Source: Escherichia coli (GTDB lineage: Bacteria > Pseudomonadota > Gammaproteobacteria > Enterobacterales > Enterobacteriaceae). Taken from it: 64,000 bases of DNA. The notes beneath the pieces were generated by a model that was not told where the DNA came from, ran no database searches, and worked only from the letters and a program-made list of their open reading frames with translations. Both the position numbers and the translations under genes were made by a program. Below are positions 5,807 to 8,825 of the stretch, piece after piece (positions within the stretch are counted from its first letter, which is position 1; each line of letters starts with the position of its first letter). The DNA lies in the NCBI RefSeq assembly GCF_003334785.1, contig NZ_QOWV01000002.1; one strand, 5' to 3'.

Positions 5807-7090
5807 ATGACAGAAGCGATGAAGATTACCCTCTCTACCCAACCTGCCGACGCGCGCTGGGGAGAAAAAGCAACTTACAGCATTAATAATGACGGCATTA
5901 CCCTGCATTTGAACGGGGCAGACGATCTGGGGCTGATCCAGCGTGCGGCGCGCAAGATTGACGGTCTGGGCATCAAGCATGTTCAGTTAAGCGGTGAAGG
6001 CTGGGATGCGGATCGCTGCTGGGCATTCTGGCAAGGTTACAAAGCCCCGAAAGGCACGCGTAAAGTGGTGTGGCCGGATCTGGACGATGCCCAGCGCCAG
6101 GAACTGGATAACCGCCTGATGATCATCGACTGGGTGCGTGACACCATCAACGCACCGGCAGAAGAATTGGGACCATCGCAACTGGCACAGCGTGCTGTTG
6201 ATCTGATCAGCAACGTCGCGGGCGATCGTGTGACTTATCGGATCACCAAAGGCGAAGATCTGCGTGAGCAAGGTTATATGGGGCTGCACACAGTCGGACG
6301 CGGTTCAGAACGTTCTCCGGTATTGCTGGCGCTGGATTACAACCCAACTGGCGATAAAGAAGCGCCAGTGTACGCGTGCCTGGTAGGTAAAGGTATCACT
6401 TTTGACTCCGGCGGCTACAGCATCAAACAGACTGCGTTTATGGACTCGATGAAGTCGGACATGGGCGGCGCGGCAACGGTTACCGGGGCGCTGGCATTTG
6501 CCATTACGCGCGGACTGAACAAGCGCGTGAAGCTGTTCCTCTGCTGTGCGGATAACCTGATTAGCGGCAATGCGTTCAAGCTGGGCGATATCATCACCTA
6601 TCGCAACGGTAAAAAAGTTGAAGTGATGAACACTGATGCCGAAGGGCGTCTGGTGCTTGCCGATGGTCTGATTGATGCCAGTGCGCAGAAACCGGAAATG
6701 ATCATTGATGCGGCGACCCTCACCGGGGCGGCGAAAACTGCGCTGGGTAATGATTATCACGCGCTGTTCAGTTTTGACGATGCGCTGGCCGGTCGCTTGC
6801 TGGCGAGTGCCGCGCAGGAGAACGAACCGTTCTGGCGTCTGCCGCTGGCGGAGTTCCACCGCAGCCAGCTGCCGTCTAACTTTGCCGAACTGAACAATAC
6901 CGGAAGCGCGGCGTATCCGGCAGGCGCGAGCACGGCGGCGGGCTTCCTGTCGCACTTTGTTGAGAACTATCAGCAAGGCTGGCTGCATATCGACTGCTCG
7001 GCGACTTACCGTAAAGCGCCGGTTGAACAGTGGTCTGCGGGCGCTACGGGACTTGGTGTGCGCACGATAGCTAATCTGTTAACGGCGTAA
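5807..7090 (+). CDS. pepB: peptidase B (M17 leucyl aminopeptidase family)
   Basis: Track ORF 5720-7090 trimmed to ATG at 5807 ([11 protein letters not shown]...), 427 aa; M17 catalytic motif NTDAEGRL present. Confidence 0.93.
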
Positions 7091-7098
7091 ACTAATAT

Positions 7099-7200
<102 letters not shown>

Positions 7201-7231: not shown

Positions 7232-8008
7232 ATGTCCGAAACAAAAAACGAACTTGAAGACCTGCTGGAAAAAGCAGCAACTGAACCGGCGCACCGCCCG
7301 GCCTTTTTCCGTACTCTACTGGAATCCACCGTCTGGGTGCCTGGTACGGCGGCGCAGGGCGAGGCTGTGGTTGAAGATAGCGCGCTTGATTTACAGCACT
7401 GGGAAAAAGAAGACGGCACCAGCGTCATTCCTTTTTTCACCTCGTTAGAAGCACTTCAACAGGCGGTTGAAGACGAACAGGCATTTGTCGTAATGCCCGT
7501 TCGCACGCTGTTTGAGATGACACTTGGCGAAACGCTCTTCCTTAATGCCAAACTGCCAACCGGTAAAGAATTTATGCCGCGTGAAATCAGTTTGTTGATT
7601 GGTGAAGAGGGAAATCCGCTGAGCAGCCAGGAAATCCTGGAAGGCGGTGAATCGCTGATATTATCGGAAGTCGCAGAGCCGCCAGCACAAATGATTGATT
7701 CACTCACCACCTTATTTAAAACCATTAAGCCGGTGAAGCGTGCTTTTATTTGTTCAATTAAAGAGAACGAAGAGGCACAGCCTAATTTACTTATTGGCAT
7801 TGAAGCCGATGGTGATATCGAAGAAATTATTCAGGCGACGGGAAGTGTAGCGACCGATACATTACCTGGCGATGAACCAATCGATATTTGTCAGGTGAAA
7901 AAAGGGGAAAAAGGAATTAGCCACTTTATTACCGAACATATTGCGCCATTCTATGAACGTCGCTGGGGTGGTTTTTTGCGTGACTTTAAACAGAATCGGA
8001 TAATCTAA
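7232..8008 (+). CDS. sseB: serine-sensitivity enhancing protein SseB
   Basis: Track ORF 7223-8008 trimmed to ATG at 7232 (MSETKNELEDLL...), 258 aa; synteny pepB-sseB-ryfA-sseA. Confidence 0.9.
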   Translation: MSETKNELEDLLEKAATEPAHRPAFFRTLLESTVWVPGTAAQGEAVVEDSALDLQHWEKEDGTSVIPFFTSLEALQQAVEDEQAFVVMPVRTLFEMTLGETLFLNAKLPTGKEFMPREISLLIGEEGNPLSSQEILEGGESLILSEVAEPPAQMIDSLTTLFKTIKPVKRAFICSIKENEEAQPNLLIGIEADGDIEEIIQATGSVATDTLPGDEPIDICQVKKGEKGISHFITEHIAPFYERRWGGFLRDFKQNRII

Positions 8009-8010
8009 AA

Positions 8011-8031
8011 TATGCCGCCCAAAGGGCGGCA
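8011..8031. terminator. GC-rich hairpin ATGCCGCCC-aaa-GGGCGGCAT between the sseB stop and the small ORF stop
   Basis: Perfect 9-bp stem with a 3-nt loop; on the minus strand it is followed by the U/A-rich run AUAUUUUA. Confidence 0.5.
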
Positions 8032-8038
8032 TTCGGGC

Positions 8039-8176
8039 TTACTTGCTGCTCTGAAGGTTGTTAACCACCAGTAAATTGTCGCCGGAGAGACTCCGGTTAT
8101 TATTTACCTCGGTTAACAGCGCACCAGAAACAATAAGTACGATACAAAAGCACCGTATCTTCATTGTGCGGTCCAT
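8039..8176 (-). CDS. candidate small membrane protein encoded within the ryfA locus (45 aa from the first ATG, 41 aa from an internal ATG at 8164); hypothetical TimP-like toxin
   Basis: Manual translation of the minus strand: MDRTMKIRCFCIVLIVSGALLTEVNNNRSLSGDNLLVVNNLQSSK, stop at 8039-8041, followed immediately by a GC hairpin at 8011-8031. Below the ORF-track reporting size (shortest listed ORF is 60 aa). No canonical Shine-Dalgarno seen, so this is speculative. Confidence 0.3.
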   Translation of the reverse strand: MDRTMKIRCFCIVLIVSGALLTEVNNNRSLSGDNLLVVNNLQSSK

Positions 8177-8294
8177 GCGAAGACCGCATCACGACAGCAC
8201 CACTGGCGATATTGCCGCGATAGCAAGCGCTGTGAAACACCTGCATTTACGGCCACGGAACATCCTTTCCTAAAGCCAGCGCCCGTTTGCGAGA

Positions 8295-8491
8295 CGGCGG
8301 AAAGGGCCGCAGTGGATAATACACTAACAGAACAATAATAACTCTCTTTTGCTTGACAAAAAGAGAGTTACTGGCGAGTATTGTCTCCGCTGAGACGCGC
8401 TTGCATTACTACGGTAATACAACCTGCTGGAAAGGCCGCGAACCGGACCAGCAACAAAAAACCGCCTGATTTTGGCGGTTTTTTGTTTTTT
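8295..8491. repeat. ryfA-locus tandem module, copy 1 (~200 nt, ends in a bidirectional terminator)
   Basis: Aligns by eye to 8617-8810 at roughly 80-85 percent identity; shared blocks GGCGGAAAGGGCCG, ACTCTCTTTTGCTTGACAAAAAGAGAGTTACTGG, CCTGCTGGAAAGGCCGCGAACC, then a terminator. Confidence 0.7.
8455..8491. terminator. bidirectional intrinsic terminator (AAAAAACCGCC-tgatttt-GGCGGTTTTTTGTTTTTT)
   Basis: GC stem flanked by an A-run on the 5-prime side and a T-run on the 3-prime side, so it is functional on either strand. Confidence 0.75.
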
Positions 8492-8616
8492 AAAGGAAAG
8501 TGAATTTACATGTTTAAGTAATATCTTTTACCGGTTAGAATTTTTAATTTTGAGCAGGATTTGTTTATATTTGTCTGAATTCGGACTAATAAGCCAGGTT
8601 ATTTTATTACCGAACA

Positions 8617-8810
8617 CGGCGGAAAGGGCCGGTGTCGATAATACGCTAAATAAACAATAATTACTCTCTTTTGCTTGACAAAAAGAGAGTTACTGGTGAG
8701 TATTGTTTTGCTGTGAAGCACCTGCGTTGCTCATGTAACACAAGTCAACCTGCTGGAAAGGCCGCGAACCAGACTAGCAATAAAAAACCGCCAAATTCGG
8801 CGGTTTTTTA
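8617..8810. repeat. ryfA-locus tandem module, copy 2
   Basis: Diverged duplicate of 8295-8491, separated from it by a ~125-nt AT-rich spacer. Confidence 0.7.
8782..8810. terminator. bidirectional intrinsic terminator; ends the sseA transcript and module copy 2
   Basis: AAAAAACCGCC-aaatt-CGGCGGTTTTTT, 15 nt downstream of the sseA stop on the minus strand. Confidence 0.8.
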
Positions 8811-8825
8811 TTGCCTGTAAAATAC

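Follow-up and report, generated by a model that had tools for sequence, protein, structure and literature searches.

A palindromic 28-mer at the Escherichia coli timP (ryfA) locus probably forms the core of an ordinary sigma-70 promoter that drives the antitoxin sRNA TimR

In the passages of Andresen et al. (2020; PMC7667032) and Fris et al. (2017; PMC5333039) that were used here, TimR (STnc2070)/RyfB is described as the antitoxin sRNA of the timPR (ryfA) type I system of Salmonella and Shigella, and the 5′ end of Salmonella TimR pairs with the 5′UTR of timP (PMC7667032). The E. coli locus analysed here was like TimR/RyfB in its sseA-timP-sseB location, its divergent arrangement, an sRNA of ~100 nt and the pairing through the 5′ end, and the Salmonella timR promoter was the same, TTGACA-17-GAGTAT with the seed 7 nt later. 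But K-12, unlike Salmonella timPR, has two timR copies and one intact timP, and a dyad of 10–12 bp was found only in one Escherichia promoter type (called type A below); a dyad round the -35 hexamer is not mentioned in the passages of PMC7667032 and PMC5333039 that were used. Back-to-back promoters and a seed/target direct repeat in the DNA are also shared with tisB/istR-1, shoB/ohsC, zorO/orzO, and dinQ/agrB, as far as these are described in the same passages of PMC7667032, but those systems differ in their regulators and RNA processing.

For K-12, the transcript, its ends, the binding of polymerase in the spacer, and the toxin-antitoxin function are largely already known under several names. 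ECS011/IS129, one of the cis-antisense candidates for which Shinhara et al. (2011, PMC3175480) list a predicted sigma-70 promoter, is the transcript of copy 1, with a 5′ end at 8387, a 3′ end at 8486, and a length of ~95–100 nt. The passages of PMC3175480 and of the Term-seq paper (Adams et al. 2021, PMC7815308) that we used treat it as antisense to IS128 and make no link to TimR, and in those of PMC7815308 the 3′ end of copy 2 is unnamed and listed only as “antisense to sseA”. The “constitutive promoter” of ryfA (Shimada et al. 2014, PMC3946193) consists of the same loop bases on the other strand. The present analysis shows that several K-12 labels, namely the SELEX “ryfA promoter”, the 3′ ends listed as “antisense to IS128” or “antisense to sseA”, and ECS011/IS129, all refer to a pair of unannotated timR copies with their promoter, and C0614 is probably one more label of this kind.

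The window, which means the whole stretch of 64,000 nt of E. coli DNA that was analysed, contains a K-12-type sseB-timP(ryfA)-sseA region around the finding. Several complete E. coli genomes matched the interval 7990–8850 (861 nt) at 100% identity, K-12-derived laboratory strains such as TOP10 did so at 99.9%, and the RefSeq annotation within it consisted of sseB, timP, and sseA only. Published K-12 positions were converted through locus L001 (MG1655 coordinate = 2662165 − window coordinate). The region is made of two modules that align at 86% overall identity; the toxin side of the second is the remnant IS128, and an Rfam scan gave no matching TimR family. The features are collected in Table 1. 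Of the toxin side, module 2 (IS128, 8442–8650; 8490–8610) still has the timP-side promoter and ~30 nt at the start of the timP leader, and an AT-rich stretch follows where the toxin gene would be; H-NS was flagged for this spacer by Shimada et al. (PMC3946193).

Table 1 Features of the sseB-timP-sseA region in window coordinates
Feature	Position	Strand	Basis
sseB	end at 8007	+	RefSeq
timP (ryfA) mRNA	8007..8310	-	Rfam RF00126, 314.9 bits; RefSeq timP CDS
timP ORF incl. stop codon	8164..8039	-	RefSeq
TimR target site in timP 5′UTR	8229-8247	-	direct repeat D3
-10 TATTAT, timP (ryfA) promoter	8316..8321	-	fixed distance from timP 5′ end, all genera
-35-like GAGTTA, timP promoter, weak; within left arm	8339..8344	-	position relative to timP start
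Promoter-like TTGTCA-16-TATTGT, loop on other strand	8332..8359; repeat 8654-8681	-	scan, 9/12 matches
Palindrome copy 1	8341..8368; arms 8341-8350 + 8359-8368; loop 8351-8358	.	exact search
-35 TTGACA, timR-1 promoter	8353..8358	+	6/6 match; TTGAC(A/T) invariant in 31 promoters
-10 GAGTAT, timR-1 promoter	8376..8381	+	17 nt past -35; invariant in type A alignment
TimR-1 sRNA (ECS011, IS129, RyfB-type)	8387..8486	+	published 5′ + 3′ ends, Northern, fold, D3
TimR-1 intrinsic terminator	8453-8487	+	fold
IS128, remnant of module-2 toxin side	8442..8650	-	Rfam RF00125
Palindrome copy 2	8663..8690; arms 8663-8672 + 8681-8690; loop as copy 1	.	exact search
-35 TTGACA, timR-2 promoter	8675..8680	+	6/6 match
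-10 GAGTAT, timR-2 promoter	8698..8703	+	17 nt past -35
TimR-2 sRNA	8709..8811	+	start by homology w/ copy 1 (8387 + 322); 3′ end published
TimR-2 terminator	8777-8814	+	fold
sseA	from ~8830	-	RefSeq

The sequence-only reading had pointed to a 28-nt element, identical in both modules, with TTGACA in its loop and GAGTAT 17 nt further downstream, and the exact search confirmed this for both copies. The element ACTCTCTTTTGCTTGACAAAAAGAGAGT has perfect arms of 10 bp and a loop of 8 nt (GCTTGACA), and no other match with up to 3 mismatches was found in the window, nor in 100 shuffles. The dyad of copy 1 grows to 12-bp arms (8339–8350/8359–8370), and a weak symmetry, AACAATA ... TATTGTT, is seen past the arms. 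Perfect inverted repeats of at least 10 bp (loop 3–20) numbered 10 in the window vs 1.0 ± 0.9 in composition-matched random sequence, and 4 of the 10 lie in this locus, two of these four being terminator hairpins.

We consider it probable that an ordinary sigma-70 promoter of the TimR antitoxin has the 28-mer as its core, and that the dyad of the 28-mer is a lineage-specific feature with no working role. The hexamer GAGTAT agrees with the -10 consensus at 3 of 6 positions, including both key bases (A at position 2 and T at position 6), and TTGACA-17-GAGTAT was not listed by a stricter promoter scan (at least 4/6 per hexamer). The 5′ end of ECS011, which starts with CCGCUGAGACG and has the v2 coordinate 2651800 (supplement of Shinhara et al. 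2011, PMC3175480), corresponds to position 8387, 6 nt past GAGTAT, as obtained by size-selected RNA sequencing, which is not primary-end-specific; starts had been predicted at ~8388 and ~8706, and the first of these was one base off. On Northern blots ECS011 gave band(s) of ~95–100 nt (PMC3175480), and the Term-seq passages used here (Adams et al. 2021, PMC7815308) place two very abundant plus-strand 3′ ends at 2653679 (window position 8486) and 2653354 (window position 8811). A -35 hexamer, a 17-bp spacer, a -10 hexamer, and a 5′ end 6 nt downstream are thus all in place for a sigma-70 promoter, and the published K-12 sRNA ends indicate that TTGACA/GAGTAT is a working one, so the plus-strand promoter suggested by the sequence-only reading was borne out. 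In genomic SELEX, sigma-70 holoenzyme (Shimada et al. 2014, PMC3946193) and sigma-S holoenzyme gave peaks in the sseA-ryfA spacer in vitro, the sigma-S peak lying at ~8651 with a resolution too coarse to assign a site or an orientation.

The plus-strand transcripts have the structure of antitoxin sRNAs. The direct repeat D3, which has the sequence GCTGTGAAACACCTGCATT in the timP 5′UTR (8229–8247), recurs at 8389–8407 with 74% identity and at 8710–8728 with 89% identity, and at the RNA level it amounts to antisense complementarity. The seed repeats begin at 8389 and 8710, directly past the predicted starts, and the duplexes with K-12 timP were predicted at -32.0 kcal/mol for TimR-1 and -42.6 kcal/mol for TimR-2. 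In the predicted fold each plus-strand unit begins with an unpaired 5′ seed, continues with a stem-loop, and ends in a strong terminator. Transcription divergent from the toxin, a seed complementary to the toxin 5′UTR, and an intrinsic terminator, as found in type I antitoxin sRNAs, are therefore all present. We also considered the palindrome arms as an sRNA/mRNA pairing repeat and rejected this, since the pairing repeat is D3 (8229/8389/8710). Of the two sRNAs, it is the distal TimR-2 that pairs better with K-12 timP, and the seed of the adjacent TimR-1 fits E. whittamii-type timP instead, which indicates that the modules were shuffled.

The perfect identity of the two palindromes had been taken as a sign of selection, on the ground that the surrounding module sequence has diverged, and this argument did not hold. 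The identical run between the copies is 34 nt (8341–8374) within a 91-nt block at 90% identity, and the well-conserved stretch is the whole promoter (8331–8384, 2 mismatches in 54 positions), not the palindrome alone. At 86% identity, chance alone would give 0.47 exact runs of 28 nt or longer and 0.19 of 34 nt or longer, so the perfect identity of the 28-mer is in itself no evidence of selection. In two hybrid single-module loci (L247 and CFT073), recombination had taken place inside the conserved block; the two copies are thus recombining paralogues and not independent witnesses of conservation.

For comparison across lineages, timR promoters were collected from E. coli variants and other Escherichia (clades, E. 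albertii, E. marmotae, E. whittamii) and from Salmonella enterica, S. salamae, Citrobacter freundii, Citrobacter, Superficieibacter, Yersinia, Rahnella, and Erwinia. A contig scan with a ryfA hairpin pattern gave 13 enterobacterial loci among the 120 listed, with none from Salmonella among them, and 9 of the 120 loci listed by a metagenome scan with a TimR 3′ pattern were relevant. A single TimP protein search reached Escherichia only, while a profile of seven TimP sequences reached Salmonella and Citrobacter. TTGAC(A/T), exactly 17 bp, and xAxxAT were common to the whole set of 31 distinct timR promoters, which came from at least 7 genera; the -10 hexamer occurred as GAGTAT, CAATAT, GACTAT, GATTAT, GAATAT, CAGTAT, and CAAAAT, and was xAxTAT in all except Erwinia (CAAAAT). 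The seed ~7 nt past the -10 fitted the strain’s own timP across the timR promoters.

The inverted repeat did not follow the promoter in this way. It was above chance only in Escherichia type A (0 of 300 shuffles reached it), which comprises both K-12 copies, CFT073, and several clades, with a degraded copy in E. whittamii (219/300 shuffles). In Escherichia types B, C, and D and in all other genera only repeats of 3–5 bp were found, which were reached by 58–295 of 300 shuffles (20–98%), so the palindrome is confined to one Escherichia promoter type and the conservation across enterobacterial ryfA loci for which a check had been proposed was not seen. Among the 10 type A variants, one-sided changes affected 4 of 10 pairs (2 drifting to T-G and 2 to mismatches) and two-sided changes affected none; the one-sided arm changes were seen in CFT073, three further loci (L125, L253, and L268), and E. 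whittamii. Compensatory change that would keep up the stem was thus not found, but with sequences so closely alike the comparison has low power, and the missing covariation is weak evidence against function. Variable columns in type A made up 4/20 of the arms, 0/12 of the hexamers, and 11/27 of the remaining positions (arms vs remaining positions, Fisher p = 0.21). The constraint in the timR promoter therefore lies on the hexamers and the 17-bp spacing, not on the arms. The type A block was present in 4869 of 5426 complete E. coli genomes, at 1–3 chromosomal places each, and most of these 4869 had a perfect dyad of 10–13 bp. A dispersed repeat family was considered and rejected, since 1–3 places per genome is the scale of the sseA-sseB locus itself. 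In one Escherichia sp. locus (L257), a G-to-T change in the loop (equivalent to 8351) gave 13-bp arms and a 6-nt loop and thus extended the symmetry. This change and the wide retention of the perfect dyad in E. coli speak to some degree against a dyad without a role.

The left arm lies in the promoter region of the toxin. The Salmonella timP ORF spans +145 to +261 according to the passages of PMC7667032 used here, and counting from the +145 rule, the Salmonella timP start is the G of GGCCC, 8 nt downstream of TATTAT, which is window position 8308; the Rfam model starts at 8310. With a start at 8308–8310, the timP promoter consists of TATTAT (8321..8316) and the weak GAGTTA (8344..8339), so that the timR and timP promoters stand back to back with ~78 bp between their starts. 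GAGTTA or GAGTAA occupies the timP -35 position in Escherichia types A, B, and D, and GAGTAA replaces GAGTTA in module 2 and in types B and D, so the left-arm side of the dyad is ancestral in Escherichia. The 28-mer was also considered as an element inside the timP mRNA and rejected, because it lies upstream of the timP start. For the same reason, and because IS128, which is the only annotated minus-strand RNA with a start beside copy 2, went undetected with strand-specific probes (Shinhara et al. 2011, PMC3175480), the RNA stem-loop in a minus-strand transcript that had been offered as one meaning of the element could not be upheld. On the minus strand, 8311–8319 reads TTATCCACT, which overlaps the timP -10 and start and matches 8 of 9 positions of the DnaA box consensus TTATCCACA; the corresponding place in module 2 reads TTATCGACA.

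Another explanation of the symmetry is that promoters on opposite strands share the -35, TTGACA-17-GAGTAT for timR and TTGTCA-16-TATTGT for timP/IS128, so that the dyad reflects a mirror design; polymerase would then bind one way at a time, and transcription of the toxin side and of the antitoxin side would compete. TTGTCA-16-TATTGT is present on the minus strand in both copies with 9/12 matches, the weak symmetry past the arms would also fit, and Shimada et al. (2014, PMC3946193) assigned exactly this sequence to ryfA on the basis of sigma-70 genomic SELEX. But SELEX is blind to orientation, which in that study was chosen by sequence inspection, and TATTGT and its spacing are not kept in CFT073, in L253, in types B–D, or in other genera. 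A second start at ~8325 or ~8647, as a bidirectional -35 would give, fits neither the timP 5′ end (8308–8310, not ~8325) nor the non-detection of IS128, which is the transcript expected from the copy 2 version, and this counts against TTGTCA-16-TATTGT. We therefore regard a shared -35 as quite improbable. The timP start fits the downstream TATTAT promoter instead, and the published “ryfA promoter” is probably not the main timP promoter, which likely corrects the orientation of that call.

The dyad might instead be an operator, where a dimeric regulator of the type A lineages covers the timR -35 together with the timP -35 region and controls both promoters jointly. Perfect arms of 10–12 bp placed exactly between two divergent promoters, and a block that is very common in E. 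coli, are what such an operator could look like. However, types B, C, and D and 6 other genera lack the half-sites although they have the same toxin-antitoxin pair, the arms vary on one side only, and they are no better conserved than their flanks, so the dimeric-protein operator proposed from the sequence fails on conservation across related promoters. We know of no E. coli factor whose motif fits the dyad by eye (LexA, CRP, FNR, Fis, IHF, NarL, UvrY, HipB, and others). CRP and OmpR have been linked, on weak grounds, to the expression of ryfA/ryfB, but no site was mapped at this place; for CRP on a ryfB promoter fragment, a preprint shows no band shift in its results, but its discussion says weak binding. 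In the papers used here we found no protein binding site mapped onto the palindrome. On the other side, a second and different palindrome of 14 bp, TCCCTTAAAAGGGA, lies between -35 and -10 and overlaps the -10 in other timR promoters (L258, L260, L262, and L263). Salmonella enterica, S. salamae, and Citrobacter freundii share this palindrome without any difference, whereas the 5 nt that precede it and the 7 nt past the -10 vary among them. In the Salmonella/C. freundii lineage the 14-bp palindrome could serve as an operator. With a conserved palindrome in these promoters too, dyads at timR promoters may not be pure accident. Taken together, we consider an operator in the type A dyad unlikely.

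A cruciform that forms under supercoiling between the divergent promoters, or a read-through hairpin on the minus strand that acts as a weak terminator shielding timP, is very improbable in our judgement. Negative supercoils accumulate between divergent promoters, and the DNA hairpins of the two copies were predicted at -9.5 and -7.6 kcal/mol (z-scores -5.8 and -4.0), but short AT-rich arms with an 8-nt loop extrude poorly. Horwitz and Loeb reportedly engineered, in 1988, a promoter controlled by supercoil-driven cruciform extrusion, with a designed repeat that is said to have been shown to extrude; the likeness is an inverted repeat over core promoter elements, but here the dyad is not conserved and extrusion is without indication. 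The sequence-only reading had suggested that the -35 might sit in a cruciform or hairpin, and against this the dyad is missing from the other promoter types and from all other lineages and genera, with no compensatory change. As RNA, the minus-strand hairpin was predicted at -15.4 kcal/mol and is followed by a U-rich stretch, so it was flagged as terminator-like, but its stem has only 3 G-C pairs, and the Term-seq passages used here (PMC7815308) give no minus-strand 3′ end between the strong terminators and timP.

That the dyad is a real switch, whether through a dimeric regulator or through supercoil extrusion, which hides both -35s at once so that the toxin/antitoxin ratio follows one signal, is in our estimate very unlikely. 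If the dyad were functional, it would be a compact device that couples toxin and antitoxin transcription in a type I system and would be relevant to toxin-antitoxin regulation.

With the 28-mer as an ordinary timR promoter core, RNA polymerase would read the loop TTGACA as -35 and GAGTAT, 17 bp downstream, as -10, and transcription would start at ~8387 (copy 1) and ~8709 (copy 2) to give an sRNA of ~100 nt, whose first nucleotides would pair with the timP 5′UTR and block translation of the toxin. The left arm would be shared with the weak -35 region of the toxin promoter, and the right arm would simply be the first 10 nt of the timR spacer, where length counts more than sequence. The dyad itself looks like a feature without function, and it would most likely have come from a templated (quasi-palindrome) mutation in this freely varying spacer. 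The spacers of types D and A differ by a clustered change (CAAAATTTCTTAACAGC vs AAAAGAGAGTTACTGGC), and this difference is exactly what makes the right arm complementary to the left arm. A clustered change that creates complementarity is the pattern expected of quasi-palindrome template switching, and the dyad may thus have arisen by a template switch, judging from this one type A/D difference in sequence. Recombination in the block, as seen in L247 and CFT073, would then keep the dyad identical between the two K-12 copies.

Several minor observations were made on the locus in other strains. In E. coli 06-00048 (L126), E. marmotae (L248–L250), and Citrobacter amalonaticus (L068), which are three separate lineages, a TimR body was fused to the remaining timP by a deletion between the timP 5′UTR target site and the TimR seed repeats. 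This deletion takes out the two promoters together with ~80 nt at the 5′ end of timP, and such repeat-to-repeat deletion looks like a recurrent route of locus inactivation. The number of modules also varied, with one, two, or two intact timP genes (L124, L254, L255, L268; L126, L127), and a duplicated sseB fragment was found in some strains with a variant module number. Some strains had IS3-family and IS200/IS605 insertions between the modules. Two Salmonella contigs (L264 and L265) had a complete timP-timR pair with TTGACA-17-CAGTAT away from sseA/sseB, adjoining IS91-type transposase and KfrA-like genes, which suggests a plasmid-borne or mobile copy. In the window itself, sub-threshold Rfam matches to naRNA4 (7085–7129, 40.3 bits vs a gathering score of 59.5) and ES036 (7133–7174) suggest REP-like repeats upstream of sseB.
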